From: Naegleria gruberi
Lineage: Eukaryota
Assembly: GCA_000004985.1 (NCBI GenBank)
Contig: GG738854.1
Length of the DNA stretch: 64,000 nucleotides
Reading direction: 5' to 3' (one strand)
The position numbers were made by a program, and so were the translations under genes. Of this stretch, positions 8,340-61,500 are shown one piece after another. The notes beneath the pieces were generated by a model, which ran no database searches, was not told the DNA's origin, and saw only the letters and a list, made by a program, of their open reading frames with translations. Position 1 is the stretch's first letter; each line of letters begins with the position of its first letter.

Positions 8340-11300
8340 TTAATTCATAAGAATGGAAGAACACTTATTGAGCTTGTCACAAATTTCTGCAAATGAAGGT
8401 CTTTCAACGTCCTTGTCCCAACATTTTGTCATTATTTCACACAACTCTTTCACAACAAGGGCAAGCTTCATCTCTGAATTACGAGAAGATCCAAAAATTC
8501 CTCCCTTCTCATTTTCCATCAAAAAGGAATTGACATATTCCTTCAATAAAGGATCCAATTGTTGATATCTTCTTGAAGATGAACTAATGTGATCACTGCC
8601 AGTACCTTGGAAGGAGAAATTCTTCTTGATTCTAAATGGAATTATTGGTCTCAATCCATTCACAATCTCTGTTGTAATTGAAATCATGTTAAAGTTAGGC
8701 AAGGTAATAGAATCAATTTGCTCAATATCAATGTTTGATTTCACGAGAGGAGAGTCATTTCTAAGTGGTTCCTTTTCCAATTCCACATCATCAATATTAC
8801 TATCTTCATCCAAATTAATTGGTTCGTAAGGTTTCACATTAATAAGATTCTTGTGCTTGACCATAAAATTCTTCATGGCTTCAAAACTTTCGGGACTGTA
8901 GGCACGTTCTTCAAAGAGCAATTCCCACATGATAATACCAAATGAGTAACTGTCACACTTTTCTGAATAGTCCTGACCTAAAATGAGCTCTGGAGGCATG
9001 TAAACTGGTGTGCCGATGGCTGATGTGAGTACACTTGCAGAGTCTTGAGTAAATTCTCTTCCTAATCCAAAATCACAAATCTTGGCAACATTATTTTCAG
9101 AGATGAGAATATTTTCAGGTTTGAGATCTCTGTGAATCAATGGTGGATCTAAACTATGCAAATATTTCATACCATACGCAACATCTAACAAGTAATTGAG
9201 CTTTGTTGCCAGGTTGAGTGGGGTCTTTTTCTTTTTCGAGTCGTGAATCTTCTTTCTCAATGTACCTCCACTCAAATATTCAATGACAATGAACCGATCA
9301 CTTGGTGTAATTGCAATTCCATAGAAAGTAACAATATTTGGGAATCTGAGAGTACTGAGAATATAAGCTTCCTTTTCAAAAGTAGAGTTGATTGTGTCTG
9401 TTTCTGCTTGATTGTCTTCATCATATTGAGTAATGTCAATATTAATTCTCTTGACAGCTACAGTGTTATTCATCCATTTAGCTAAAAATATTACTGATTC
9501 ACCACCTTGGCCAATTCTTTCAACAATTTGCAGGTCTTCAGGTTTGATAATCCAACTCTTATCTTGATTGAAGGAGCTATTTCCTGCTGTATCATCGTGC
9601 AAACTGTGTTTGGAAGAAATAAGTTGATATTGGAGTAATCTCTTGTGTAAATCTTCTTCTGCTTGTTCTCTCTTCTTTAATTCTTTGAGTTTCTTTTTGA
9701 AGAAGTACAAACATAATGTGGTTAATAAAATGATAAAGGTCAAACCAAGGGCAACAATAACACCGAGTGAAATGAGTAATGCATTTTGAACTGCTGAATT
9801 GAAAATACATGCCTGATCATCTACACTGTAATCAAAACTGAAAGGACAATTTGGTTCAAGGTTGACTGGGAAGTAAAATTGTTGAATAACATTCTTACAT
9901 TTAAAGTAAAGAATTAAGGTTTGATTGAGTTGTCCTTTCACTTGTACGTTACTGAAAATAGCTGTATCATTTGAGAAGGTTGTAGAAACGTGATTCTTGT
10001 AGTCTTCTGTGTTGTTAATATTAGTTGTGAAAACCAAATCAATATCTGCATTCTTGATGCTTTCCATTCTTTCATTGAACAAGTCAAACGAATCCAAGGT
10101 TATTTTCACAAATTGACCTGCATATAAATTAAAACCAGTGTACTTTTTCAAGAGAAGAGACTTGAATATACTAAGAGGAAAATCGTACGGAGTATCCTTT
10201 GGTTCCCATCCATTACTAGAAAGAGCAAAATACTTTGGATCAGAGGCATAATTGTCTCCATAAAGTTCAGCATAATTATCGTCAAAAAAAGCAGTCTTGA
10301 ATTGGCTGGCAATACGCATACTGGTTGTTCCTACGAGAAATACAGCACCTCCAGAGTTTTCTGCTCTATTGTGAAGGAAATTAATATTGCTAAATTGGAA
10401 TTTTGAATTTGGATAATCAATGTTATACAAGTACATTGCTCCACCATTGTCTGCCTTGTTATAGCTCAGAGTGATATTAGAAACTGTAGTAGAAACAGAT
10501 GAAGGAGTGAAGAGAATTGCACCTCCCATTCCTTCTTTCACTGGATTGTGGACAATTCTATTGTACTGAAATAAGGAATCTTGGATATTCAAATTAGTTA
10601 AACCATAGGCAAATACAGCACCTCCTCCTGGAGCTTGCTCAGAGTAGGCCTCTTCAGGTTTGTAAATAATTACATTTTGACTAAATTTAGAACTTCTCAC
10701 ATCCAATAAATCTCCTCTCGACACGTAAATTGCAGAACCACGAATACTGGCAACATTACCTTCAAAAGAGGAATCCTTCAAAATGAGCGAACTCCTTCTC
10801 TCTCCATAAATACCGCCAGCTCTTCCTTGTCGTGCTAGTCCATAGTTGAAGCTACTTCTCTCCACAAATGAGTATGTACTTGATTTGAGATAGAGAGCAC
10901 CTCCATATCCATCACAGGTACTGTTAAATAGAGTTGAATCGTTCAGGAAAAATTTTCCCTTCTCAATAAAAATAGCTCCTCCATCGTACTTGGAATAACA
11001 TTTAGAGAATGTGGAATAGGTAATACTTGAATAAGGAATATCCAAATACAAACATCCACCAGAATCTTGACTTGTTGCTGTTTCGAATTTTGAAGTTGTA
11101 ATTGATACAGATCCACTCTCAGAAGTGACATAGATAAAACCACCAAATGAAGAGAGGGCAGTATTGTAACCATCAGAAAATGTGGAGCGTACCAATGTGA
11201 AAACTCTATCAGTAACTCGTTCGCTTTGATCTGAAATGTAGATTGATCCTCCATGTCTCAAAGCAGTATTTCCCTTAAAATTACAACGTAAAACACTCAA

Positions 11301-12928
11301 CTTCAATGTGTTTGAATTAATGGCTGCTCCAAACTGGGCACTATTATTAATAAACTGTGAATCAATAACCTTCAAACTGTCTGATGCTATCTCTGAAAAT
11401 TGTTGCAAGTCCAAATAACGAACTGCAGATGCACTGCTCGTTCCCTCAAAAACACATCCAATAATGGATCCATTCCTCACATTTTGTAAGAAGAGAGCTC
11501 CACCATCATTGTCCAAAAATTTTGTACCAACCACAGATGTAGCTTGTGAATCAGCAATAGCAAGAACAGGTAACGTGCCCATATTACTATTTTCCATAAA
11601 GGCAGAGTTTGCAACCAACACAATGTAATAATTTTGAATGGAAACAAAGTGACAGGTTGTGTAACTGAATTGAACATTGGTAATAAAAGCACTAGTACCT
11701 GTCAATGACTCACTACTCTTAACTTGTAAACTTCCAGTAGCATTAAAGTTGGTATCAGAGATTTTAACTTTGGAACACGTTGCACAAGTCATGGCACCAA
11801 CACTGTAACACTGACTTCCAGTGCAATTTGTTGCAAAATTGCTCTTCTCAATTGTGAACTGTCTAGCTGTGTGTCCAAAGATGAAATAGTGTTTTGGTGA
11901 TGTGGATGTGCACTTTTGAGTTGAGGCACCAAGATCTTTACTTTCATCCAAACCAATTGTTACATAACTGGATGCAACATTGAGTGTAAAGGAAACATTT
12001 CTGAATAAAGCTTCACAATTATTATCCAATTCAAAATCAATATATGATTCAGATGGTCCTAAATTCCTCACCACTTGCAAATTTTCATAAAAACAAGTGC
12101 CACCTGAACATTCAACATAAGAATCGACCAGTTTAGAATTTCTAATGACAATATCTGGTTGCCAAGTTGCCGAAAACACATCAAACATTCGATTCAACTT
12201 GTTCATCTCCACCTCTTCAAATATAACTCTTGTTGTGTAAATACTCGAAACATAATCATTCTCTACTGCAATCACAGCATTAACATCCCAATTTACAAAG
12301 GCAATATTGGTGAATGATATTTCCATTTTGAAAGGATTGATTCGTATAAAGGGAGAATAATCAGCACATGAAATGAAAGTCTTTGACAATCCATAAAAGT
12401 TGGCAATAATCTTGCTTTGGATAGCCTCTGAATTGTTATAGTATGGCAAGTCAATTGCACAATTATTACTACCATCACTCACATCTATATTATTCAATAA
12501 ATAAATATTTAATTCTTGTTCTTCCGCTATTATTACATGATAATAATTATAATAGTATTATTAGTATTAATTTACATATGATGATGATTATTATTAATTT
12601 ACATGATGATCATTAATTTACATTGAAAATCAACAAAATTACTATTCGCATATATAAAAACAAACTACCTACCTGTACTAGTCGTATTGAACAGCACACT
12701 CCACCTCTCCAGTACATATTTTAGTGAGTTACATGGCTGAGAAGGGGTAGAACAGGGAAAGAAGTTATTGTTACTGCTGCTACTAGCCTTCGGATCAATG
12801 TAGACACTACTCATTATCTTGGCAATTGTGGTGTTGATGGTCAAAATGTTGAGAAACGATAGCACCACGAGGATAGAAATCAATCGCCACACCTCATGAT
12901 CCCTTCGGGTCATCATTGAATGTCTCAT
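8340..12928 (-). CDS. Receptor-type protein kinase with Pmp-like beta-helix ectodomain, paralog 2
   Basis: Exon 1 is 12928..12673 and begins MRHSMMTRRDHEVWRLISILVVLSFLNILTI (signal anchor). The intron 12485..12672 runs GTAGGT..ATAG; an alternative acceptor would place the exon 2 boundary at 12526. Exon 2 is 12484..8340. The ectodomain (roughly 750 aa) has many GGAVF, GGAIL, GGAMY, GGALY and GGAIF repeats plus FSQN, FQYN and FLHN motifs. The transmembrane segment is ALLISLGVIVALGLTFIILLTTLCLYFF. The kinase domain is in one exon: IGQGGESVIF, VAVK, HRDLKPENIL, DFGLGRE, YMPPE, DSYSFGIIMWELL. There is a long insert between subdomains IX and XI. Stop is TAA. Confidence 0.7.
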
Positions 12929-13126: not shown

Positions 13127-14206
13127 TTAATGCTTGTCTGTGATGAGATAGGATAATTGGAGAGCTTCGTTCTCTGTTAAAATTCCATCACCATCCAAAT
13201 CGTAAGGTGAGAGAACTCCCTTGCAAATGTGGTAATGTGTCTCCACTTCAGAGACTTGTATTTTACCTTCCACTTTCAATTGTTCAATTGATTTTCTGAC
13301 TCTCTTTTTCCATTCTTCCAATTCATGCAAATCTTCAATATTAGGAATGCTTAGCATTTGGTATTGATTCATTTTGGAGAAACCAGTTTCTGTTTTCTCA
13401 TGTCTGAACTTTTCCAAATCTGCTAAAAAATCCTTCTTCACCATTGATATGGGTGGAGATTCTACATTATCAATATAATTGCTCAATTTTGGAATTACAT
13501 CCTTCTTCCACTGATCAACTGACTTGTTCATTACTTCTTCGTATAATTGTTTGAAAATCCAAGCTTTGATATTTTGTCGAACAAGGTATTGAGGGTGAAT
13601 TAATAAATCAAAAACAGTTTCCAAATCCAACTTGTTGAGATAAACTGCTGCATAGGCAACACAAGCTCTATTACTCAGAAGTGAGTCCTTTGTTTCTATA
13701 TTTATGAGATTTCTCAAGAGTGGTTTAATTTCCTTATCTATCACAACAGTTTGACATCCTACACAAGCACTTAATTTCAAGGCATAATTTGGTGTATCAA
13801 TTGAACTGTTTGGCAATTTAAGGGCTCTTTTGATCATATCTGCTCTCATTGTTTCCGAAAGAATAACAAACGGATTCATCAGTAAATTACAAAGAGATTG
13901 GAAAGGATAAAATTCATTATCAGAAGATTCTGGCAATTTTCTAGTTCCTCTCAAATCAGCAGATATAAACCCGTGATCTATTATTTGCTTGAAAATATCC
14001 TCATGGTCTTGTAACGTTTCCTTCGTTAATCCTCTCCTCAACTTTTGCATATTATCAACATCTCTTGCCCTCAAAAATCCCATAACACTCTCCTCACAAC
14101 CACTTCCAAGATCCGACAAGTTTGCTCCCGAAGAAAACATTGATAAGGAATCACTCACCGACGATGATGACGTTAAGTGTTCGCTGTTATTGTTATTGTT
14201 GCTCAT
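13127..14206 (-). CDS. Hypothetical protein with a C-terminal EF-hand-like calcium-binding loop
   Basis: 359-aa single ORF from ATG to TAA. The N-terminus is N/S-rich. The C-terminal DLDGDGILTENE sequence fits the DxDxDGxIxxxE EF-hand loop. No other recognisable domain. Confidence 0.5.
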   Translation of the reverse strand: MSNNNNNSEHLTSSSSVSDSLSMFSSGANLSDLGSGCEESVMGFLRARDVDNMQKLRRGLTKETLQDHEDIFKQIIDHGFISADLRGTRKLPESSDNEFYPFQSLCNLLMNPFVILSETMRADMIKRALKLPNSSIDTPNYALKLSACVGCQTVVIDKEIKPLLRNLINIETKDSLLSNRACVAYAAVYLNKLDLETVFDLLIHPQYLVRQNIKAWIFKQLYEEVMNKSVDQWKKDVIPKLSNYIDNVESPPISMVKKDFLADLEKFRHEKTETGFSKMNQYQMLSIPNIEDLHELEEWKKRVRKSIEQLKVEGKIQVSEVETHYHICKGVLSPYDLDGDGILTENEALQLSYLITDKH

Positions 14207-14301
14207 TACTATAGTAAATAGATATCTATTGGTTATAAGGGCGAAGCGTTGGGTTTTTTTTTAAAGTTTTTTTATGATACTTTTTAATTGTACAGAAAAA
14301 A

Positions 14302-14310
14302 GGCGCCAAA
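14302..14310. promoter_or_regulatory. E2F-like GGCGCCAAA motif upstream of the gene at 13127..14206
   Basis: The sequence aaaaaaGGCGCCAAAttt reads TTTGGCGCC on the other strand. It lies about 96 bp upstream of the minus-strand ATG at 14206. It belongs to the recurring GCGC-core motif described in the findings. Confidence 0.25.
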
Positions 14311-14689
14311 TTTCAATGCCAATTTTGTAGGTTGCCATAAATCCAATAAAATTCATGGAATTAAAGAAATTAGTGTGGCCGGAAAGATTTCTGGCTGGGG
14401 TATTCTAGGAAAGAGTTTCTTAAAGAAATCTTTCCTGGAAAATCCAGTAAGCAACATAAAAATGGAAGCAATGCTTCCTTAATAGTTTTGAGTCCGAAGC
14501 TAATTGCACAGTTTTGAGCCTCAAAGACATCAAAAGAATATTCACAGCAAACTCAACAAAGAAGTACCTTGCATTCATAAAAAATATCAATTTTATGAGT
14601 AGCTTATTTTCGGAGTGGTTCTTCATCTTCCCACTCCAAGAATTGAACCTCATCATCTATACATCATCAATATAATAGTAATAATAGTA

Positions 14690-15480
14690 GTTTTATGTGG
14701 AAGTTTATCGTTATGGAATTAGATAGTAATTTTGATATTGGAAAAATTCAAGTTGGTGAATCATCATCAGAACACACACCAACCATCATCATTAATTTTT
14801 ACCATCATTATAACAATAGTATTTGTAGACTTTAATTTGAGAATAGTATTATTTTGACAAAAGTTAATTTTTCACTAAATTGGCCAATATCTTCCGATGT
14901 ACTGGACCATTATCAGAAATTCAAATGTGGGATTATTTGTAATAGTATATAGCAATACATATTCGAGTTTCATAGATTGGAATTTTGTTTTCATCAAGAT
15001 AGGTACATGTATATATTCAAAATAATATTGACCATATTTCAACATGTACTTCATCATCAACCAAACTTTCTTCGAATAGTACCATTCAAATACTTCATCA
15101 ACAACACTCCGAATAATAGTTTTTGGATATTTGGAGTTTTCACCTTGTTGGTGGTGTATTCATCATTCACCATATATTTTCATCATGATGATTGAATTTC
15201 AACAACATAGTATCATTAGTAGGGATGTCTAATATCACCATCAAGAGAGTTGGAATTTTTCCACTTAGTATTCATAGAGTTGTGGAATTTTCACTTCATC
15301 ATATCTTTTATCATCAATATCATCAGCAAGTCCACTTCCGATCATTAAGGTAAATATCTTAATGGTCATCATCATCACACCATCAATAAAATTCACTAAT
15401 GGTGAATTTTCCAACAAGGTAAATTTCAAGGTCGTAAATCTTGCTGATTTTCCACCTTGAATTATTTCAATAATTAAATA
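14690..15480 (+). repeat. Dispersed non-coding repeat, copy A
   Basis: It aligns with 31430..32110 in the same orientation. Shared blocks include ggaaaaattcaagttggtRaaYcatcatcRgaaca...ccaaccatcatcatt...catcattataaYaatagta.tatttgtRg, a second block ttttcactaaat, and a third, aggtWcatgtatat...caacatgtacttcaYcaac...attcaaatac. Identity within aligned blocks is roughly 75 to 85%. No ORF. Confidence 0.5.
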
Positions 15481-15919
15481 AAATTATATTTTTATTATTA
15501 GCATTGTGTTTTCTTGTAGCAACATCTGTTTTATGTATTCTCCACTTGATTTCATCAAATAAAATAGTAAATTAGAACATGATGTCTTTTCCTAATATCA
15601 TTGGTTTGCTGCTTCAGAACAAAAAATTACAAATTAAGGTGGATTCTTCACATACAGTCACTTTTGCCATTATGGTAACAACTCAAATAAGGATGAATCA
15701 ATATTGTTTACTGGAATTTCCAGGAAACTTTTTTCAGCGAAACTCTTTCCTGGAAAGACCAGAGGAAAAATCTTTCCGGCTACAATTAGGAAAGATTACA
15801 ATTTGTGAATTTTGAAAGTGTGAAAAGAGCAACTTAATGGTCAACCAAGAATGAGGAACTGGCTGCCAAGATCGGTCACATGTCAATAACTTGAATCATG
15901 CAAAAAACATTAAAAAAAA

Positions 15920-19071: not shown

Positions 19072-20537
19072 TCAATAATCTTGCTGGGCAAGGAGAATGA
19101 TAACTTGAGAGGCAAGGGACATGTCATGAAGTGAAACGAATTCGCTCTGTGAAAATGTAAACTTGAATGAAAAATTCAGTAAAAACTTACAGTTGAGTGG
19201 AAATTGTGGCCACCTGCGAAAATGTTAGCAGTTGGAAGACCCATCCAACTCAATTGAGAACCGTCAGTTCCTCCTCTAATAGAAACTTGCTTAACTTCCT
19301 CAATATTCAATTCCTTATAGGTTTCGATAATGCTCTTTTCCAAGTATGGATACTTGTCAATGATTTGTCTCATATTTCTGTATTGCTTGGTGAAAGTTGT
19401 TTCGATGGTTGCATTTTGATGTTCAGATTGAAGTTTGGCAACAATTTCCTTGATAATTTTTTGATAATTTTCCAAACCTTCATCATCAAAAGCTCTCAAT
19501 AAACATCTAATAGTTGACTTGTCAACATTTCCATTAAAATCCATACAGTGAATGAATCCTTGTCTGTCCTTGCTTACTTCTGGTGTTAAAACTTGATCAT
19601 TTGAAAATATCAAATCCAAAAATTTAGAAGCGACTTTGAGAGAGTTGACCATTCTACCATATGAATATCCTGGGTGAATGTTAAATCCTTTGAAAACCAA
19701 GGTAACAAGATCAGCACTGAAAGATTCAATATTATAGGTTCCAACTTCAGCTCCATCAGCAGTAAAAGCAACATCAGCACCAAACTTGGTTAAATTGAAA
19801 TAGTGTGGTCCTCTTCCAATTTCCTCATCAATAGTAAAAGCAATCTTAATATCACCATGTTTAATACTTGGATTATTCACTAAATATTCAACAGCAACCA
19901 TCATTTCAGCAACTCCTGATTTGTCATCCGATCCCAACAATGTTTCTCCACTGGCAGTCACAATATCATGTCCAATCATTTTAGCAAGCGATTTTCCATC
20001 AATTGCATACTCTACAATTGTTTTTCCATTCACAACCAAATCATTGCCGTCCTTATAATTTCTATGAACAATTGGCTTGACATTTGCTCCACTAAGCTCT
20101 GTAGCAGTGTCCATATGTGCCAAAAATCCAATATTTGTCTTTCTTTCGACATTTCCTGGCAAGACAGCATATACATTTCCATATTGATCCATTTCAGCTT
20201 GCAAATTCAAAGCTTTCAACTCATCAAGTAAAACCCGTGCAAAAATTAATTGTTTTTCAGTGCTCGGAACAGAAGCAGAAAGTGCATCACTCTGTGTATC
20301 AAATGTTACATAGTGCAGGAAACGTTCTTCCAATCGTTTTCTCATCCAATCTTGTTCCGTGATGGAAAATTTGGAATTTTCATAAATTAATTTTTTAATA
20401 TTTGATGGTGATGATTGTTCTCCGTTGAGTCCGATCTGGATGGATTCTTCCTGTGTTGCTGCGATGACGGAATAAGAAGCAAGCAACAAGAGGAGAAGCA
20501 AGGGAATAAATTGTTTCATTTTTTTTGTAATCAACAT
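19072..20537 (-). CDS. Peptidase M20B family tripeptidase (PepT-like) with N-terminal signal peptide
   Basis: Exon 1 is 20537..19191. A 44-nt GTAAGT..CACAG intron spans 19147..19190. Exon 2 is 19146..19072 and ends in TGA. The signal peptide is MKQFIPLLLLLLLASYSVIAA. M20 motifs are present: FLAHMDTA, GSDDKSG, FTIDEEIG and GGTDGSQLSW. The spliced C-terminus, GGHNFHSTSEFVSLHDMSLASQVIILLAQQDY, matches the conserved PepT C-terminal helix. Confidence 0.7.
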
Positions 20538-29270: not shown

Positions 29271-29951
29271 TTACAATAGATTACTAATCTTGACTCTATC
29301 AAAACGTTTGGCTATTAGCGAAATGTCTTCATTGGAATATTTGGTTATCAGGTTTGGATAATTCAATACAAAATCAACAGCCAAATCGATTGCTCTTGAA
29401 TTTTCCTTATTGGAACTTGACTTTTGGTTTAACAGAGATTGAATTCTTCTATATGGCCAACGTTCAATATTGAGTCTAGTCTTGATTCTTTTGAGTTTGC
29501 TCTTGGAACACCCTAAACGCTTTGCAGCTTCATTCTCTGGAAGGAAAAAGTGCTTTTTAATATCATCATAACAAATGTAACTCTTTTGATTGGAACTAGT
29601 TCTATTGCATCGAATGATTTGAGATTGGTGTGAGGTTGTAAACTTATTCTTCAAGTCTACTGATCTCATTCTTGACTTGCTATTGCATTCTTCTTCATTG
29701 GAACTTGAAGAAGATGTATTATCATCAAGAATGACTGTTTTACGAGTACGTTTGCTACTTCTTTTCAGTATCGAACCATTTTCATCAGAGTTTTGGCTTG
29801 ATGCTGATGTATAGTCTGGAGCAATTGGAATACGAGTGGATGTTTTTACATTGGATAACGAACAATCAGAATATTCCAAATCACTAGTATTGGATCTATC
29901 TCTCTTCATACTGATTGGATGTATTGTCACTACTGAGTTTAAGGTGAGCAT
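29271..29951 (-). CDS. RWP-RK domain protein (putative transcription factor)
   Basis: 226-aa ORF from ATG at 29951 to TAA. The C-terminal KKHFFLPENEAAKRLGCSKSKLKRIKTRLNIERWPYRRIQSL matches the RWP-RK signature (..YF..P...AAK.LGVS.T.LKR.CR..GI.RWP.RK) with the variant RWPYRR. The N-terminal half is Ser-rich. Confidence 0.65.
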   Translation of the reverse strand: MLTLNSVVTIHPISMKRDRSNTSDLEYSDCSLSNVKTSTRIPIAPDYTSASSQNSDENGSILKRSSKRTRKTVILDDNTSSSSSNEEECNSKSRMRSVDLKNKFTTSHQSQIIRCNRTSSNQKSYICYDDIKKHFFLPENEAAKRLGCSKSKLKRIKTRLNIERWPYRRIQSLLNQKSSSNKENSRAIDLAVDFVLNYPNLITKYSNEDISLIAKRFDRVKISNLL

Positions 29952-31429
29952 GTTGTTATAGTTCTTCTTAATAATAGGGATGAAAATGTTTTTCTATTGG
30001 AAAGAGTTTGATCTTGGCAGGACGAATATCGTGGAGGTGGTTAATAATTATTATATTGGACGAGTTCGTGGAATGGTGTTGAGATCAGAGTAATATACAC
30101 AAGAGAGAGAGAGGAGGAATTAAAGTTGTTTTTTTTGAATGTGCTACTTTATCTCAGTAAGGGTGAGTGTTTAAATTGTGAGGAGGATTACACTGAATGA
30201 TTCGCTTAAATGCAACAACAAACTGCTTACTTGTCTCAATTATCAAGAGAGGTACCACCTAAAAGTACGTTCAAGGAATTGGAGTTAACAGGAGCGCGAG
30301 ATTTGAGTGCAAAAATCTAGCGCTACTGTGTTTTACTGTAATTTTGCACCATTTACTTTGTTTTACAGCGCTTAATTTGTGCATTCAAAATGCTAGAAAT
30401 GATTGTGTCATTGAGTAATGAGTCCAAACGGTTTATTTCAACGGTTAGAGTGGTGGTGTCAAACGAAAATATTATGTGGAGAATCTTCAAACGAAAACAT
30501 TACTTGGAAGAATGATGATATGTAGGACAATCATGATAAGTATTAATGAGTTTTGCAAATAATTGAGTAATGGCTCAATTCTTTGCTCAACTAACGCAAC
30601 AATTAATGGCTTGGTTGTTGAACAAACTCAGGAACACAAGGAACAAGATTATTGGAAGGTTAACTTTATACACTGAGATCTTGCGTTGGAGTTTTTGCAC
30701 CAATTTGTTGCCATTACGGTCGCATATTTTCCATTATTTCACTAGGTGAATCTATTAAGCACACAAAAGATTTTTCACACAATGAAAATTTATCAACATA
30801 TCAAATGAATGAGACAAATACCGTGAGTGGAATCATCAGCTTAATAGTTACAGAAGATTGGACAATTTATTTCTTTGGAAACAAGTGGCTTGGTAATGAA
30901 GTTGGGACAAGATGAAGAAAATTCACCTCAAAAACAAATTTTCCTCATCTGACCGATCTGTAAGGATCAAATGTAATAGGACTATTCCACAAGTTCATCA
31001 TTATCTCCCTCAAGAGCTCTTCAACTGGTCCTTCAGGTACTGGTGTTGTTCCTTCTGATCCTTCTGCTACCATTGCAGAGAAGGGTAAGATAATTTCCTA
31101 TTGTTCTGTCTTTGAGCTTTAGATTTCTTGGTGTTGGATTTGCCATTACGTTGTGGTCTCGAACGTTTTTGAATGGAGGTGAAAGTTTGATGAGTTTGAT
31201 GAGTTGTAGTATGAGCGATCATACAGAGGATGAAGAATTTGAATGAACAACAATAACATGCAGATTATCCAGAAGAATATTGCTTTGCGATGAAGCATCT
31301 TGTTCTAGGCTACTTTTTTCGCCTGAAAAACAGGCAAAAAATATTTAGGCCAAAAAAAATAGCCTAAAATGTCTAGGCGCAAAATAGTAGGGTGCTTATT
31401 TGATGGACAAAAGTTCTTGGTGTTGCCTT

Positions 31430-32110
31430 GTATGTATTAATAACACCGAACAAATACACGTTCCATTATTTTCCACCATTAAGAAAAAATATTTCAGCCC
31501 AAACACACATTGGGAACACTTTGGTGATTTTCAGAGTGATTTCACCCCATGAATCCACCAAACTTTCACATCATCATCTCAACATCATCCTAATAGTATT
31601 ACTGGTAGTATTTTTTATTATTGGATTGTGATTATAAATTTGGAATTTAATTTTCACTTGGGAAAAATTCAAGTTGGTAAACCATCATCGGAACAACTTC
31701 CAACCATCATCATTGTTATTTATCATCATTATAATAGTAATATTTGTGGAAATAAATCTGATAATAGTAATATTTTAGTGAAATTCAATATTTTCACTAA
31801 AATCATCATCACTGCCAGATTCATATGGTAATTTGGAAAACTTTCAATCTAGTATTGTTCAGCATGGTCGATTCCATCAGGTAAAATCACTTCCGAACAT
31901 TTTCCTATTGGTTATCATCATGATAGGTTCATGTATATTTTCAACATGTACATGGACCATAACTCAACATGTACTTCACCAACTTGGAAAATGTCTTTCA
32001 TAACTACTATTCAAATACATAATAAACAATATATTTATTATCAGTTTTTCATCATTTTGTTGTTTTACCAACTTCGGAATATTCATGATAACATATCATG
32101 ATTCATGCCA
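31430..32110 (+). repeat. Dispersed non-coding repeat, copy B (paralog of 14690..15480)
   Basis: Same-orientation alignment to copy A, sharing the same three blocks listed there. It sits inside a 3.4-kb gene-free interval. Confidence 0.5.
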
Positions 32111-33405
32111 AAAGTACATAGCCAAACTTCTTGAAACATTAATAAACTGTTATTAGTATTATTGTAGATGTACCATATCAAATATTTCGTTTTATTTCGA
32201 TGAGATCATAAAGATCTTAAATTTCTCTCTAAACATGCAAGTTCTCAGCCTAACCAGATGTTCACCATGTCAAAACATCAAAATAATAAATTTCATTGTA
32301 CTTTTGTATCACACATTAATTTATTGTGTTAAATTCATTGAATTGGAGATTTTAAATTTTTAAAAACTAATCTGTGATTATTTACCAATTAAATATACTT
32401 CTTTAATACTTGATAATTCATAAAATCCTAGTAGATATTGAATAGGTTCATAAAACAAGATATTACACATAATGGCTCTAAATTCATGCTAATAGAGCTT
32501 GTTTAATGAGACTTATCATATTAATGATATGTTGTCTAATTGGATTCTATTTGTGCAAGGCCTAATTCCATCCCTAATATAGCAGACTTTTAGGGATGGA
32601 TAATTTTAATGGAATCTATCCTAGAAGTATTTTTCGCCTGGAAGGTTCATACCAACGAATTTAACTGCCTGGGTCTTCATGCGAGTTTTTATCGCCTATA
32701 ACACATCTTCATGGTGATTATGAAGGGTCATGTTTTCTAATTCGGTTGTTGTGGTTTTGTCAATACTGAGATAGTCGGGTTGGACCTTAATTGGAAAATT
32801 TGTAAATGCGGAAGAACCTGATTTACAATTGGAAGGATGAGCAAGCGTACTTTGTGGGTTCATACCAGTAATGAAATTGGAGTGGGCATTTGGTGAATCT
32901 GTAACTGTAACTTGGGAATAGGGGCTGACCGGATGAGTTGAGAAGGTTGAATGGAGTTGGGAGGAGTTGGAACGGGGAAGGGAGACGAAATTGTCTATTG
33001 GATTGAGTATTGACACATGTTCTATTTGTCTCAATTGAAGAAGCTATTAAATCGTGATGGAATTGATTTGTGAACATTAAGGAAGGTGAAAGACAGATTA
33101 TCGTTTTTGAGGGTTTGACTATGGCGTTTTGGAGTTGTATTACAACAACTATAATCAACATTTCATTCCTTTGAAAACATGTGTAGAGGAGAGGGAGGAT
33201 ACATGTGTAGAGGCAGTTCGATGGGAGTTTAGGAAAATGTTGGATGTGGAAAGGAGAATGGTTGAAAATTTAGGAAAATTGTGAATTGTGATTGGAAATG
33301 TTGTTGATTGTAATGTGACAGGTGTCATTTCGGATGCTTTCCTTACATTCATAATTGGCAAGGTATTGAATTGATTCACCTACTAGAAAAATCAACACGA
33401 AAAAA

Positions 33406-53288: not shown

Positions 53289-56200
53289 ATGTCTGTTGCA
53301 GAAGCTTCTAATAATGGTGCAGCTGCAACTACATTTATTGAAAGGAGTATTAATTTTAATGAATCATCAACCATACAACAATCATCATCACAACAACGAG
53401 AAAATCAACATGTGTCGGGAAGTTTTATAGGAAGCAATACGAGTAGTTCATCTAGCTCGACCAATTTTTCAGCAACAATGATGAAAAGTATTAAGGAAGC
53501 TATTGTGTCCTATATAATTTCAATGCAATACAAGCCACTGAGGCAGGGCAAAAAGTTTATGCTTCTCTCTGTTTTGTATCATTTGTATATAATGTGGATT
53601 TCCATCTTTTTACCAACACTAGGCGATTATAATTGGGGAGAATATGCAAATTGGATATTCAAGGCAGTAAATTATCCAGTAACCCTTTCACTAGATTTAA
53701 TTCCCTATGGTGGCATTGAGGCTTTGGGAGCAATTGTGTTTGCAATCAGTGCCCTATCTGTTCTTGTTGTTATAATGGCAGTTGCGAGTGTTCATAGGAC
53801 GAGTAAACACATTGAGAGGGTGAGATTAATAGTAATGGTGACTGGACTTGTTCTCTCTCTGTTGGGACCACTCTTTGCATTTATTCTGACGGGCTTTACA
53901 GATTGTGAATACAAGCAAAAGGTGTACTTTGAGAGTATAGATGATAAGGCATATGCTCTTTCTAGATATCCAGAAGCAGAGTGCTTTGGGGATAATATGT
54001 ACCTTTACATTATTTCAATTATTGCAGTATTCGGAATTTGTCTATCCATATTATGCACCTTAATTTCCTTCTCATCAAGTTGGAAGAGTGACATGGTATT
54101 CAAAACAGTTGTCCATTATCCATTATCATACTTGGTTATTAGTAATATTCTTCAAATGTTCATCATGTATTTTATTCATGATGAGTTCATGTATGGAAGA
54201 GCAATCCTTCACTTGATTATTTCAGCAAGTTGGATTCCTATACTATTCTATGAACTGCCCTTCCAATACAGATATGAAAATTCAATTTATTCTGGAGTGG
54301 GTTTTGCAAGAATAGGAGCATCAATTGGTTCTCTGATATCTTCCCTTGCCAACTCAGCTGACAATTCAGGTTTTGGTTTGGGAATGTTTGGCTTAACGTT
54401 CGCTCTTATTATCATTTCATTCATTGGTGGAGTAATAGGAATGGAATTATACATTAGATTATCTACTCACAAGATTAGAAGTTACATGTTGTCTATTGTT
54501 GAGAAAACTCTATCTGTTAGTGGATCATTGCCTTCGAAATTCAAAGAAAGAGCCAAATACATTCTGGAAAAAGAGGCCACTTCAATTTACTCCCATTTCA
54601 TTGAAACACAACAGGCAGGATATTTAAGAATATTTATTCGATTCAGCATTGATCAAAACTCTAAAAACAGCTCAGAAGCCATCCTCACAAACACTGATTT
54701 ATCTCTGTATTTCATTAAGGGTGCGTCAACTCAAAGATCATTCAACGATAGCAAAACTCTTCTCTATTCATCCATGTTAATTTATTTCAACTATGGAGAT
54801 GGTAATTTAGGATCAATGTATGCAAAAGGGTTGTTGAAAATCTTGGCAAAGCAAAAATTGAATATACCAGAAGTAATTATGTTAACAGAGTTTTCTAAGG
54901 AAATTAAGGATGAGAATAGTGTAAATTCATCTGATCTCGAACAATTATTGAATAAGGTAGAGAGTAATATAGCTGAATTGAAGTCCCTCCATAAGGCCTT
55001 CTGGAAAGAATATTTGCAAGATGTAATTGAAGTGGGAACTTTGGAATCGATTAATAACAAGTGTTCACAACTGATGAGCCAATGCGAAACTATTTTCAAT
55101 AATAGGCTTTCCAGATACAAACACAATAAGAATTTCCTCAGAGCGTATGCACAATTTTTAAACGAAATCAAATTTGACAAGGAAACTGCCTTTGAAATAT
55201 TCCAAGACGCAGCCATTGTTGACGAAGATGAGCCATCTAAAAAACGTGTTCTTGCTAAGAGTAATTTATTCACAGAATATGGTAAACAGCATTCTGAAAC
55301 CAATTTGGGGTTTTCTCTAGATGGCTTAAAGGCTAGCAACCAAAAGAGTATGGACATTGAAACAATTCATGAAGATCAAATGTTGGATGGAGTTGAGAAT
55401 GATCCACTTGCAAAACGGGAGTTCATTTTCAAAAGTGCTCTCTCCCAACCACAACAAGGAGGATATCATATGGGATCTGTTATCCTGTTCTGCTTTATAT
55501 CCTTCTCTTTTGTGCTCCTTGCCTTAGTTTTGAATGTTTATTATTCAGTGGAAGTTCTTTCAAATGTCAAGTTTGTTCAGCAAGTTTGTGAGCCAACTGT
55601 TTCTTCATATGCCATTTTGAAACAAATCAGAAATAATCAAATACTCCTTCAAGCTAAAAATCAGGGTCTAGATGTTGATGAAACAGATATTATGGGTATT
55701 CTTAAGGACGAGACAAACGAAAATATTACTTCCATACAATCTGTTTGGAAGGAGAGACTTAATTTCTATGTTGAACATATTGAACATGTTAAAAAGATGT
55801 CACAAGGTAAAATTGTTGGAAAATTCACACCTGAAATGTATGAAGATTACAATAGTGAAACAAATGAAATATTTGTTCCTGTGATTCAAACAAAGAATCA
55901 AAATTCATTCATTGAGGTCATTAAGAAGAATGTTTCACTCTCTGAAATATCATCACTCTTGATTGATATTGTTGAAAATTATCCATCAGGAGGATACAAT
56001 GAAACATTGAAAGAATATGATTTCATGTTGGTATTCTTGAATAGGGAAACTTTCACAAATGCCTTTGTGAAAACATGTTTCAGTTTCTTGGAAAGATGTG
56101 AACTTGACTCCAAAAATTTCAACAATTACTACCTATACTTTTATGTTTCTGTATTGTCATTTTACATTCTTTACACAGCCATCTATATTCTCTATGTAAG

Positions 56201-58316
56201 AATTGAATTCTCATTTATCACTAGAACCATTAGATTAATGGAACGCAGTATTTCAAAGGATATTGTAGGTAAAATCTATCAAGATTTGGCAAAGAAAGTA
56301 GAAGAAAATGCTTCTTTGGGATTTCTCAAATCAATAATCAGCCAACCAAAAGTGTTTTCTGTTTTTTGTATTGCTTGTTTGGCTTTTCTTACAATACTTG
56401 CATCTTCAATGATGTTCGTAGAGTTGAGAATTAATTCTGATCTAGGATATTCAACAATGTTGAGTGTGCATAAGACCGCCGAAAATCTTGTTTTGGTTCA
56501 GTCAATTGGATACAAACTAAATGAGATTTTCTTTTCCACTCTATCACCCTCTTTATATAATGACCCTATCTTAATCAATGGAACCCTCTTAGATTATTAC
56601 AGGGTGGAGGTGAGATACAATGTAACAGATTTGAGAAGAAGTTTTAACGAATTGATTTATGGTAAGCTTGGAGGAAATTCAGCAATTTTAGGAATGATAC
56701 CAAGAATTGATCAGATTATTACAGGAACTGATTGTTCTTCTGGCAATTGTACAAGTTTGGAAAACTCTTTGGACGAATTTACAATTGGATCTAGCAAGTT
56801 CAACGAAGATTTGCTTAAAGGAACTTTTACAGAGGAAGAGTTGGTTTTAAAGAATGCTGTTGTGGATGAATTGAGCCACCACCTAAGTGTAGACTTTCTT
56901 GAATTTTTGGCCTTGTTTACCATTGCAAGATCAATACCTTCTACTGCTATTGCACTAATTTTCAGTATTCTTGGATTTCTCACAATAGTTATTTTCTATT
57001 GGTTACTGGTTCGAGTGTTTCAAATTCATTGGAATGATGTATTCCATTTAAGAAGCATGTTGAACTATGTAGATTATGACTACTTGGATTCTTATGACTC
57101 TTTAAGAAACTTTATTCTATACCATCAACTGCCTTCTAGAAACCTGTTCAAAAAGAAGAATAAGATTGCCTCAGCAGAGGGTGACGAATCGAAGGTGAAG
57201 AATATTCTCAATGCAGCAGTTGACGGAGCTATTCTTTGTAATAGTACATGTGATATTGAAATATTCAATCCAGCAGCTCAAAGAATGTTTGGATGCAAAC
57301 AATCAGATACTTTGGGAACTCCAATTTTCACTCTCTTTGATAAAGAATCGAGGACAGAGTTGGAGAGAGTCATTTCTGAATTGATTAAGAATGCCAAATC
57401 GACAACATCTTCTGAAAGTCTTGGTGAAACTGTTGAATTGGATTGTGTGAGAAAGAACTTGACAAAATTCCCTGCGAAAATCAATTTGTTCTCAACACTG
57501 TTTGATGGAAAACCAGTTGTGACATGTTTCATTAAGGATGCAACTTCTGAAAAGAAACAAAATGCATTGTTGGCTGAAGAAAAGAAAAAATCTGAAAATC
57601 TATTGAGATCTATTTTGCCAGAAAGTGTTGCCAATAGATTGAAATCTGGTGAAACATTCATTGCTGAGAAATTTGCAGATATTACTTGTTTCTTTTCTGA
57701 CATGGTTGGATTCACTCAAATGTCTTCAACTCTCAATCCAACTCAATTGGTTGGAATGTTAAATAATATTGTGAATGGATTTGATGCCTTAACAGACAAA
57801 TATAGTTTGGAAAAGATCAAGACAATTGGAGATGCCTATTTCTGTGTTGGAGGAATTGGAAATACACAATCTGATCACCCAGAAAGAATACTTCGTTTCT
57901 CAATGGACATATTCTTAGTAGTACGTAACTATAACGAGGAGAATGGGAAAGAATTTGGACATCAAATCAATATTCGAGTTGGAGTGAATACAGGAAGTGC
58001 AGTTGCAGGTGTGATTGGTACAAAGAAATTTGCCTATGATTTGTGGGGTGATACCATCAACACTGCTTCTCGAATGGAATCAACATCAATTGCTGGAAGA
58101 ATTCAAATTTCCAGATCAACTTATGAAAGAGTTTATGATATGGGTCTTGAATTTGAAGAAAGAAGTGTTGAAGCAAAAGGAAAGGGTTTGTGTCTCACTT
58201 ATTTAGTCAAATCTCATCACCATGCACAGGCCATAGTTTCTGATAACGAAATCATTGATTCTGACCTCGAGGTTTCCCTAACTACAAAACCAGAGGATGC
58301 AAAGGCAGAGATATAA
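53289..58316 (+). CDS. Polytopic membrane protein with PAS domain and class III adenylyl cyclase catalytic domain, paralog 1
   Basis: Single 1675-aa ORF from ATG to TAA. The N-terminal cluster has about ten transmembrane segments, and there are more downstream (about aa 745, 950, 1020 and 1220). A PAS-like fold is present (NILNAAVDGAILCNSTCDIEIFNPAAQRMFGC...PVVTCFIKDATSEKK). The cyclase core has FADITCFFSDMVGFT, KIKTIGDAYFCVGG, RVGVNTGSAVAGVIG and FAYDLWGDTINTASRMES. The metal-binding Asp residues, the transition-state Asn/Arg and the Lys...Asp specificity pair are all present, indicating ATP specificity. Confidence 0.85.
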   Translation: MSVAEASNNGAAATTFIERSINFNESSTIQQSSSQQRENQHVSGSFIGSNTSSSSSSTNFSATMMKSIKEAIVSYIISMQYKPLRQGKKFMLLSVLYHLYIMWISIFLPTLGDYNWGEYANWIFKAVNYPVTLSLDLIPYGGIEALGAIVFAISALSVLVVIMAVASVHRTSKHIERVRLIVMVTGLVLSLLGPLFAFILTGFTDCEYKQKVYFESIDDKAYALSRYPEAECFGDNMYLYIISIIAVFGICLSILCTLISFSSSWKSDMVFKTVVHYPLSYLVISNILQMFIMYFIHDEFMYGRAILHLIISASWIPILFYELPFQYRYENSIYSGVGFARIGASIGSLISSLANSADNSGFGLGMFGLTFALIIISFIGGVIGMELYIRLSTHKIRSYMLSIVEKTLSVSGSLPSKFKERAKYILEKEATSIYSHFIETQQAGYLRIFIRFSIDQNSKNSSEAILTNTDLSLYFIKGASTQRSFNDSKTLLYSSMLIYFNYGDGNLGSMYAKGLLKILAKQKLNIPEVIMLTEFSKEIKDENSVNSSDLEQLLNKVESNIAELKSLHKAFWKEYLQDVIEVGTLESINNKCSQLMSQCETIFNNRLSRYKHNKNFLRAYAQFLNEIKFDKETAFEIFQDAAIVDEDEPSKKRVLAKSNLFTEYGKQHSETNLGFSLDGLKASNQKSMDIETIHEDQMLDGVENDPLAKREFIFKSALSQPQQGGYHMGSVILFCFISFSFVLLALVLNVYYSVEVLSNVKFVQQVCEPTVSSYAILKQIRNNQILLQAKNQGLDVDETDIMGILKDETNENITSIQSVWKERLNFYVEHIEHVKKMSQGKIVGKFTPEMYEDYNSETNEIFVPVIQTKNQNSFIEVIKKNVSLSEISSLLIDIVENYPSGGYNETLKEYDFMLVFLNRETFTNAFVKTCFSFLERCELDSKNFNNYYLYFYVSVLSFYILYTAIYILYVRIEFSFITRTIRLMERSISKDIVGKIYQDLAKKVEENASLGFLKSIISQPKVFSVFCIACLAFLTILASSMMFVELRINSDLGYSTMLSVHKTAENLVLVQSIGYKLNEIFFSTLSPSLYNDPILINGTLLDYYRVEVRYNVTDLRRSFNELIYGKLGGNSAILGMIPRIDQIITGTDCSSGNCTSLENSLDEFTIGSSKFNEDLLKGTFTEEELVLKNAVVDELSHHLSVDFLEFLALFTIARSIPSTAIALIFSILGFLTIVIFYWLLVRVFQIHWNDVFHLRSMLNYVDYDYLDSYDSLRNFILYHQLPSRNLFKKKNKIASAEGDESKVKNILNAAVDGAILCNSTCDIEIFNPAAQRMFGCKQSDTLGTPIFTLFDKESRTELERVISELIKNAKSTTSSESLGETVELDCVRKNLTKFPAKINLFSTLFDGKPVVTCFIKDATSEKKQNALLAEEKKKSENLLRSILPESVANRLKSGETFIAEKFADITCFFSDMVGFTQMSSTLNPTQLVGMLNNIVNGFDALTDKYSLEKIKTIGDAYFCVGGIGNTQSDHPERILRFSMDIFLVVRNYNEENGKEFGHQINIRVGVNTGSAVAGVIGTKKFAYDLWGDTINTASRMESTSIAGRIQISRSTYERVYDMGLEFEERSVEAKGKGLCLTYLVKSHHHAQAIVSDNEIIDSDLEVSLTTKPEDAKAEI

Positions 58317-58515
58317 TGAATCCATTTTGGTAATATAGAATCATTTTATTTGCCAATATATTTTCCTTTTTTGTCACTTAACGATTCTGACAACCAATGA
58401 TGGCGATGTTAGTGAGTTACAGAAATGGCGGGTAAAACATGAAATCTCAATTCTTATTAAAAAAAACATCATTAACCCTTCTTGAATACAAAAAGATATT
58501 GGTTTGCTTTTTAAA

Positions 58516-61500
58516 ATGTCCGGGAGTGATGAGTTGGAGGCCTCTGCTATAGAAGACGACCAAAGATCTAATTATTTCGAATCGAGGACTCATATGAAAG
58601 GAAATGGAGAAGGCTCAAGTATTGTTGGAAGTGCACTAAGTGTTCAATCGAATAATAGTACAATAGCCTCGACAACTATGAGAACAGTGCAAACTGGAAT
58701 ATTGACTTTTATTTTGGCTCTACAGGATAAATCATACAAGAAATCAAAGAGGTTTATTTTTATTTCAATACTGTATCATTTGTATATCATTTGGACTTCA
58801 ATCTTCTTACCAACACTAGGCGAATACAATTGGGGAGAGTATGGAAGTTGGATTTTCAAAGCACTTAATTATCCAATCACATTTTCATTAGATTTGGTGC
58901 CCTATGAAGAGAGTGCTGCAATTGCAGGTGTCATTATGGCTGTCATCTTGTTGGGTTTGTTTTTTGTGTCATTTTCTGCTTGGACTGTTTATAGAAATAG
59001 CAAGTTGGTTGAAAAGATGAAAGTGGTAATGGCTGTGTCGAGTTTGGTGTTTTCAGTGCTGAGCAAACCATTTGCTTTTGTTTTGGCTGGTTTTATTGAT
59101 TGTGACTTTTCAAAGACAGTTTACTTTGAAGATATTGATGATAATACTAATGCACTTTCTCGATTCCAAACAGTTGCTTGTTTTGGAGGTAACACGTACT
59201 TGTATGCACTTTCGATTATTTCAATGCTTGCATTTTCTCTAGTGATACTTTCAACTCATTTTGCCTATTCTCCTAGTTGGAGGAGTAAGGTTGTGTTTCA
59301 TACAGTTGTTGGTTGGCCCATTACCTATTTGGTTATTTCAAACATGCTTGAGATTTATCTAATATTCTTTATTCCAAAATCTGAAATTTGGGCAAGAGCT
59401 ACTTTACATTTGGTAGCAGCCCTGACATTTGTTCCAATGATTCTAATTACACTTCCCTTTCAGAGACGTATTGAAAATTCCTTCTATCTTGCTGTAGCTT
59501 TTGCAAAGGTTGGATCTTCAATTGGTTCACTCATTTCTTCCTTGGTCAATTCTAATAATAAGTGGGATTTAGGTCTTGGAATGTCAGGTTTAACAATTGG
59601 TCTCATTATTTTAGGTTTCTGTGTTGGATTCATTGTGATGGAGTTGTATATACTAAGAACAATGGCTTTCATTAGACACAAGATGATTAAGGCCATCGAG
59701 AGAGGAGTTTCCATTTCAGATACTGCTCAAACTCAACTTTCAGAGTCTGCAAAAATGGGCCTTGAAAGAGAAGCTACAAATATCTATTCCTCACTTCATG
59801 AATCACAAAGTTTGAACAAGCTCAAAATATTTATTAGGTTTAACATAATCCGAAGAAGCAAGCAAACAAAGGCAATACTAGACGATACGGATATGTGTCT
59901 CGCATTTATTAAGGGTGTTTCTCATCAGAAAACATTCAATGATCCTTCTCTAATATTGTTCTCCAGTTTACTTATCTATGTCAACCATCCAGATGAATCG
60001 AATAGCTCAATTTTTGCCAATAGTTTGTTGAAAAAAACTACGCGAGTCAAGTTATCATTCTTTGAGAAAGTTACCCTTGGTGAGGTTACCAAAGAATTGA
60101 ACATCTCTAAAAATGGTAAAGTTGCAAGAAACACAACAGACTTGGAATCATTGCTAGTTAGAGTTGATTCAAATTTTTCGCAACTCAAATCTCTTCACAA
60201 ATCCTTCTGGAAAGAATTTTTACAAGATGTTGTTGACACTACTAACTTGGAAGTTATCAATAGTAAATGTGCTCAATTGATGGCTGACTCTGAAAATATT
60301 TTCCACAATAGAATTTCAAGATATAAGAATAACAAAACCTTCTTGAGATCATATGCTCGCTTTCTAGATGAAATCAAGTTTGACAAGGATCAAGCTGCTG
60401 AACTCTTCCAAGAAGCAGCAACTATGGAAGAGGAAGAGCTTGCCACAAAGAGAAGGAGGCAGAGAAAGTTTAGTCGTGTTGTGCCCTATGATGGACCTGT
60501 AGTAAGCGTTGAACCTCCTGCATTCTCTCTCGATGGGTTGAGAAAGGGAACAAATGAACCAATTACAAACCTAATGGATGATGATTTTGATGATCATATG
60601 TTGGATGGTGTTGAGAATGAACCTGCAACTAAGAGAGAGTATGTTTTCAAAGCGGCTCTAGCACAAAAGACCAACGGAGAGTTGCACGTGGCCTCTGTAG
60701 TAATGTTCTGCCTTCTTTCATTTGCAATAATACTTGTTTCCCTTGTGTTGAATGTGTATTATTCAGAGGAAGTTCTTTCAAATGTCAAGTTTGTCCAACA
60801 AGTTTGTGAACCAACTGTTTCTTCATATGCAATCTTGAAACAAATCAGAAATAATCAAATACTAATCCAAGCAAAGAATCAGGGTATTGGTGTTCAGGAA
60901 GCTGAACTAATTGACGTCTTGGAAATAGAAACAGATAGCAACATTACTGTAACAAGTTTAAATGAGATTTGGAAGGAGAGACTTAATTTCTATGTTGAAC
61001 ATATTGAACATGTTAAAAAGATGTCACAAGGTAAAATTGTTGGAAAATTCACACCTGAAATGTATGAAGATTACAATAGTGAAACAAATGAAGTATTTGT
61101 TCCTGTGATTCAAACAAAGAATCAAAATTCATTCATTGAGGTCATTAAGAAGAATGTTTCACTCTCTGAAATTTCATCACTCTTGATTGATATTGTTGAA
61201 AATTATCCATCAGGAGGATACAATGAAACATTGAAAGAATATGATTTCATGTTGGTATTCTTGAACAGGGAAACTTTCACAAATGCCTTTGTGAAAACAT
61301 GTTTCAGTTTCTTGGAAAGATGTGAACTTGACTCTGTGCAATTTGATAACACTTTCCTCTATTTCTTTGTTGGTTCTGCCTGTTTTTATATTCTGTCCTC
61401 CCTAATTTACATTATTTACATCAGGATTCAATTCACTCTAGTTGCCAACACACTGGCATTATACGAAAGACATTTAACAAAAGACTTGGTTGGTAAGATC

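Follow-up and report, generated by a model that had tools for sequence, protein, structure and literature searches.

Among described mobile elements, the repeat analysed here comes closest to the non-autonomous DNA transposons with terminal inverted repeats (TIRs), that is, to MITE-like elements and deletion derivatives. It has in common with them the TIRs, a target-site duplication of fixed length, the lack of an ORF and a position in a gap next to genes, as well as the occurrence of copies at unrelated loci with homology starting at the terminus (in our case the left end, in a copy on the metagenome contig L004 described below). Compared with classic MITEs the element is longer (1.4 kb) and its arms are only 77% alike; its known copy number is very low for a MITE-like element, and its old copies have kept their inside and not their ends, the reverse of what is usually seen. 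The second group that invites comparison is Ginger2/TDD, whose members have TGTNR ends, TIRs of 45-300 bp and a duplication of 4-5 bp (5 bp in TDD-4 and TDD-5), with an AT-rich target preference, RTATAY, reported for animal Ginger2 (PMC2836005). The paper describing the Ginger elements makes no mention of Naegleria (Bao, Kapitonov and Jurka 2010, PMC2836005). Ginger2/TDD elements have been discussed in the literature as relatives of LTR-retrotransposon integrases, and what defines them is an integrase-like transposase of the DDE class that has an H2C2 zinc finger and is encoded by the element or by an autonomous relative. In the Naegleria gruberi genome transposons are scarce (0.28%; bioRxiv 10.64898/2026.06.24.734286) and repeats in total amount to 5.1% (PMC6125883). 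A literature search found no published description of the element reported here.

The stretch of N. gruberi nuclear DNA that we analysed (64 kb in all; the window) is gene-dense, with 34% G+C, and the gaps between its long ORFs mostly measure 100-650 nt. Two gaps are outliers, 14207-15919 (1.7 kb, locus A) and 29952-32695 (2.7 kb, locus B), and each contains one copy of a dispersed repeat. An initial sequence-only reading had placed both copies in the two largest intergenic regions of the window. This description fits locus A, a true 1.7-kb gap with divergent genes on its two sides. It needs amending for locus B, because 30909-31007(+) encodes 33 residues that are 42% identical to residues 108-140 of the RWP-RK protein 29271-29951(-) (E 5e-5), so that the 2.7-kb gap is partly non-intergenic; judged by this match, the fragment probably stems from a divergent RWP-RK paralogue that has decayed or is spliced. 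From the analysis described below we consider it likely that the repeat represents an internal module and that the elements carrying it form an old N. gruberi family of non-autonomous cut-and-paste (TIR) DNA transposons, of which copy A is structurally complete and copy B a relic.

Architecture of the 1,411-bp element at locus A

Locus A is flanked by the genes for a 359-aa protein of unknown kind (13127-14206, -) and for a 213-aa membrane protein. Within the gap, copy A is bracketed by the longest inverted repeat of the 64-kb window, detected by a repeat search and by arm-to-arm blastn (77.6% identity over 85 columns, E 2e-13). Its 84-nt arms begin 5'-TGTRGCCGGAAAGATTT..., the left one occupying 14374-14457 (+; 5'-TGTGGCCGGAAAGATTT) and the right one 15701-15784 (-; reverse complement 5'-TGTAGCCGGAAAGATTT), and the start of the left arm is marked independently by the point at which homology begins in L004. 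The element ends read TGTRGCCGGAAAG.../...CTTTCCGGCYACA, giving TGTGG as the left terminus and, read as reverse complement, TGTAG as the right one, and the pentanucleotide ATTAG can be read directly outside both of them, at 14369-14373 and 15785-15789. When 370 x 740 position pairs across the A gap were scanned without bias for inverted ends that match at 11 or more of 14 positions and are bordered by a direct repeat of 5 bp, this pair alone was returned (14374/15784, ATTAG, 13/14 matching), with a chance expectation that we estimate at ~2e-4. Copy A is therefore part of an element bounded by inverted repeats and a duplication, which spans 14374-15784 (+) and measures 1,411 bp. It is structurally complete and has no coding capacity, none of its ORFs exceeding 78 aa. 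Both the right terminus and the target-site duplication are features seen in copy A only, since the copy on L004 breaks off at the position matching 15517 of the window.

The arms contain a further regularity. Each of them carries two palindromes of the TTCYNGGAA type, those of the left arm being TTCTAGGAA and TTTCCTGGAAA, and the related motif TTTCCWGGAAA occurs three times in the window, in all cases within the two arms (0.14 occurrences expected). We regard these palindromes as putative transposase-binding sites.

The sequence-only reading had found neither terminal inverted repeats nor target-site duplications at the two copies. For copy A this was mistaken, as shown by the 84-nt arms and the ATTAG outside both; for copy B it was correct. 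Candidate inverted termini with a duplication around copy B do not rise above chance level (30539/32410 and 30235/32497, both with 11/14 matching; ~0.17 expected by our estimate), blastn detects no arm sequences in its surroundings, and the resemblance of 31312-31335 to part of an arm is short and not significant.

Removal of the element together with one ATTAG leaves ~297 nt between the divergent genes, a typical gap for the window, and the promoter region at locus A would thus be anomalously long because the transposon inserted there. In the mechanism we propose, the element would have landed in a divergent promoter region of ~300 bp and duplicated the 5-bp sequence ATTAG, and the pre-insertion site would read ...AAATTAGGAAAG... 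(...GAAATTAGGAAAGATTAC...) with a single ATTAG. A transposase made elsewhere and acting in trans would bind the inverted ends, then excise the element and reinsert it across a 5-bp staggered cut. The combination of 5'-TGTNR ends, TIR length and 5-bp duplication suggests that this enzyme would be of the integrase type, of the Ginger2/TDD kind. With the Dictyostelium elements TDD-4 and TDD-5, element A shares the TGTGG/TGTAG termini, the 84-nt TIRs and the 5-bp duplication, and by this analogy an affinity to Ginger2/TDD is suggested; the likeness is one of ends and duplication only, as element A has no ORF, and neither an integrase-type transposase nor an autonomous partner was seen. It also differs from animal Ginger2 in its target, AAATTAGGA, which is off RTATAY, a single site being unable to define a preference.

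The 359-aa gene at 13127-14206(-) clusters with EFC47643 of the 665-kb scaffold to which the window belongs. A second copy of this gene, EFC36072, is 99% identical and lies on a 43.7-kb N. gruberi scaffold, which is probably allelic and could carry an empty insertion site. The three loci of N. fowleri and N. lovaniensis that we examined (L001-L003) lack the element, and they are rearranged with respect to N. gruberi and thus uninformative on the insertion. In these two species peptidase T is encoded directly next to the orthologue of the 359-aa gene. In N. gruberi ~5 kb lies between the two, taken up by a kinase gene, a 163-aa ORF, the membrane-protein gene and the transposon.

The module shared by copies A and B

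In the blastn alignment, 14606-15175 and 31527-32096, which lie on the same strand, are 66.6% identical (578 columns, E 3e-68). The similarity had been judged to be far beyond chance from the letters alone, and the scores bear this out: the two copies score 245 bits, whereas 200 dinucleotide-preserving shuffles of copy B average 25.8 (sd 3.1, maximum 36.8). The blocks quoted in the sequence-only reading (GGAAAAATTCAAGTTGGT, CCAACCATCATCATT, TTTTCACTAAA, CATGTATAT and TCAACATGTACTTCA) are all present and collinear. The unit itself is smaller than the 0.7-0.8 kb assigned to it earlier. With boundaries set by eye and accurate to a few bases, the module recovered by blastn and nhmmer measures ~580 nt and extends over 14604-15182 (+) in copy A and 31525-32105 (+) in copy B, and the remaining stretch at locus A, 15183-15480, holds only a degenerate inverted partial module. 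The two copies lie 16.9 kb apart in the same orientation, and neither an nhmmer search with the two-copy profile nor a pattern search found a third in the 64-kb window.

Identity between A and B is unevenly distributed along the module. It reaches ~73-75% in two best-kept cores, 14640-14880 and 14980-15100, and falls to ~46% between them, and none of 2000 column shuffles (0/2000) attains the observed variance. Indels are few and small (~4) against ~33% substitutions. In composition, both copies are enriched in CATCAT with a marked strand bias (12:2 in copy A, 10:0 in copy B), and AATAGTA motifs are likewise abundant in both. Runs of tcatcatca had been reported earlier for both copies and for the intron 12540-12640; the former is supported by this enrichment, and the intron reads atgatgatg on the + strand, which is the reverse complement. 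This AT-rich, intron-like stretch with its atgatgatg runs belongs to the 5' region of a large ORF, 8340-12497(-), that combines Chlamydia-PMP-type repeats with a transmembrane segment and a protein kinase domain.

The inverted partial module inside the element (15166-15498, -) was identified by minus-strand blastn against copy B, which matches it in two pieces, 15166-15262 (68.7%, E 5e-5) and 15442-15498 (68%, E 3e-4). Its clearest piece, 15442-15479, is complementary to 14729-14766 and forms an internal inverted repeat of 38 nt at 76%. The resulting nesting of inverted repeats, with the 84-nt arms, the 38-nt inner pair on roughly the same axis and the inverted partial module, is reminiscent of foldback elements, from which element A differs in that its halves are mostly non-complementary and subterminal tandem-repeat arrays are absent.

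Copy B is an immobile relic, because it has no termini and only the ~580-nt module is left; under the transposon reading it would once have had them. Its neighbour on one side is the RWP-RK protein (29271-29951, -); on the other lie two ORFs of 112 aa each, overlapping and of unknown family (32696-33161, -), and further out an RCC1-like protein. When the A and B neighbourhoods are compared in translation, the repeat itself is all that matches, which argues against the two copies lying in UTRs of paralogous genes, a possibility raised in the sequence-only reading. Upstream of copy B, 31273-31404 forms a palindromic region in which two short G+C stems (GCCTG...CAGGC and TTTAGGC...GCCTAAA) stand amid runs of A and T; permissive Rfam scans give matches to it on both strands, all far below threshold.

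A SINE-like nature had been offered as one option for the repeat, which is indeed short, non-coding and dispersed. It has none of the hallmarks expected of a SINE: a head of the tRNA, 5S or 7SL type is absent, Pol III boxes do not occur in register, and no tail of A-rich or simple-repeat sequence is present. Copy A bears inverted termini, which SINEs lack. We therefore discard this option.

Copies beyond the window and the history of the module

Using the translation of the conserved A/B frame purely as a probe, a search in protein space retrieved a 46-aa ORF identical to that of 14695-14835 on an ENA metagenome contig of 3,528 nt (L004). Bases 1381-2508 of this contig are 97% identical to 14374-15517 of the window. 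The identity begins exactly at TGTGGCCGG, corresponding to base 14374, the predicted left terminus, and the 1.38 kb upstream are unrelated to the window. The flank of L004 contains a 144-aa ORF, which falls into one cluster (90% or more) with XP_002668304/XP_002669068 of N. gruberi (NAEGRDRAFT_76785), located on a 195-kb scaffold; because this flanking ORF maps to the 195-kb scaffold and the window to the 665-kb scaffold, L004 represents a different locus of N. gruberi. The copy is without the right arm and breaks at the equivalent of window position 15517, which a deletion, a rearrangement or a chimeric assembly could explain. Immediately before its left terminus, L004 1196-1380 is an open frame (...IHPAQRGFRRLASTTDQLVIV...) with a weak, below-threshold match to RVT_1 (E 0.015), and going by this match the copy may have inserted into a retroelement remnant. 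A search with the 38-aa ORF of the element as query returned L004 only.

A more distant relative was found through an exhaustive profile search (entry P0130) on a 513-nt contig from another metagenome (L005). Over ~335 nt it is 76% identical to copy B and 70% to copy A, its likeness to the A type appears to extend leftwards beyond the B boundary by ~65 nt, and no inverted termini are present within its 513 nt. The known copies of the family thus comprise three N. gruberi loci and one metagenomic fragment; exact-pattern scans of JGI metagenome contigs and viral contigs for module and arm motifs gave 0 matches. The similarity is thus not confined to loci A and B, a confinement that the sequence-only reading had named as grounds for preferring a local segmental duplication. 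The 97% copy at another N. gruberi locus indicates that movement was fairly recent, and copy B and L005, at 66-76% identity, would be much older relatives. Of the options put forward from the letters, that of a decayed non-autonomous transposon is hence the one that gains support, by the TIRs and duplication of copy A, by a 97% copy elsewhere that starts at the terminus and by the diverged L005.

What speaks against a single family is that B and L005 have no inverted termini, and the module and the TIR element could have had separate histories. The module would then be a separate, older dispersed element, for example a solo LTR, and copy B would never have had the 84-nt arms; at locus A, an unrelated TIR transposon would have captured a copy of the module or received it by insertion, or would have been built from two inverted module-bearing units. 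We judge such nesting of two repeats to be unlikely, though far from negligible. It would account for the sharp limits of A/B homology, which lie well inside the arms (by 230 nt on the left and 600 nt on the right), and for the inverted partial module in the right half of the element. Furthermore, the module resembles a solo LTR in being ~580 nt long, dispersed and non-coding, and in copy B it reads TG...CA as a solo LTR would (31525 TGATTTTC ... GATTCA 32105). However, copy A reads TT...CA, the module has no flanking duplication of 4-6 bp in either A or B, and no full-length retroelement, internal sequence or other retroelement body lies beside any of its copies. The boundaries on which this reading relies were set visually, with an uncertainty of a few bases, and the similarity of L005 to the A type seems to pass the B boundary by the ~65 nt mentioned above.

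Conservation, coding capacity and RNA structure

Simple neutral decay of a transposon family does not readily explain the pattern of conservation, in which identical columns come in blocks and indels are very few. When A, B and L005 are aligned, the identical columns are clustered to a degree that none of 5000 column shuffles (0/5000) reaches in variance, and the near-invariant blocks in these three copies, otherwise 25-35% diverged, include CAAGTTGGTRAAYCATCATCRGAACA, CATCAWTATAAYARTARTATTTGTRGA and TTTTCACTAAA. One way to accommodate this would be that the blocks are under selection and that the module is a functional unit borne by or derived from the transposon, for instance a regulatory module that is portable or a gene for an unstructured RNA, with the TIR element as its vehicle; the family would then be the first of the Ginger2/TDD type described in Heterolobosea. 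We consider this combination improbable.

Coding potential was assessed in a 269-nt gap-free block of the A/B alignment. Stops occur in all six frames, the substitutions are spread evenly over the three codon positions (28/27/28) and show no codon periodicity, and codon changes comprise 6-10 synonymous and 46-49 non-synonymous ones. Neither copy has an ORF longer than 72 aa, in agreement with the sequence-only reading, and a protein-coding exon or small ORF is ruled out by the stops in every frame and the lack of periodicity.

Among RNA genes, ARAGORN predicts no tRNA, and no Rfam family matches at the gathering score, permissive settings yielding sub-threshold noise such as miRNA-like matches on the arm hairpin. 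The richness of the minus strand in TGATGA prompted us to consider a C/D snoRNA cluster, which was rejected since CTGA (D box) is conserved on neither strand. Single copies fold somewhat more stably than their shuffles (z -1.2 to -4.3) into structures that differ between copies, and folding two or three copies to a consensus gives weak structures, with covariation terms near zero (-6, -6.75, -0.8 and +1.8 kcal/mol in the two- and three-copy alignments).

These results bear on the view that the module is a conserved functional non-coding element, an ncRNA gene or a cis-regulatory module, which is under selection and came to lie between inverted repeats at A by chance. The blocky conservation in three diverged copies, the paucity of indels and the slightly increased fold stability would all be compatible with such an element. 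We nevertheless rate it as very improbable, given that no Rfam family comes near threshold, that no D box is conserved, that predicted structures disagree between copies with almost no covariation, that it does not occur at the loci examined in N. fowleri and N. lovaniensis, and that a 97% copy resides elsewhere in a transposon with a defined terminus. For the scaffold-attachment or origin region suggested from the letters we found no support, and the data can be explained without it. A local segmental duplication, or a chance similarity of AT-rich low-complexity DNA, might be suspected because the 64-kb window contains just two copies, which share their orientation and are separated by 16.9 kb, and because CATCAT and AATAGTA motifs are plentiful in both, but is scarcely credible with a score ~70 sd above shuffles, unrelated flanks and neighbouring genes, and further copies on another scaffold (L004) and in another metagenome (L005).

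Under the transposon reading, the object is an ordinary low-copy transposon family, previously unclassified. The N. gruberi genome is compact and dense in genes and contains very little mobile DNA; here the coexistence of recent (97%) and ancient (66-76%) copies provides a marker of transposon activity in a deep-branching eukaryote (Discoba), and the known range of Ginger2/TDD would widen if an autonomous partner of the integrase type were found. For annotation, the sequence should be flagged for repeat masking.

Two other features of the window were observed. The first is a pair of tandem paralogues, 53289-58316(+) and 58504-63558(+), which encode proteins of ~1,680 aa with PAS and adenylate/guanylate-cyclase domains and are 66% identical. 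They contain near-100% tracts at ~aa 837-940 and from ~aa 1290 to at least aa 1510, with 99% identity at the DNA level between 55744-56043 and 60968-61267, and from their sequence these tracts look like gene-conversion patches. The second is the peptidase T gene, 19176-20537(-), whose product is 100% identical to an NCBI N. gruberi protein and has its best matches outside Naegleria in bacteria, several of them of the Ignavibacteria type, at ~42-49% identity, a distribution suggestive of an old lateral transfer of the gene to Naegleria.
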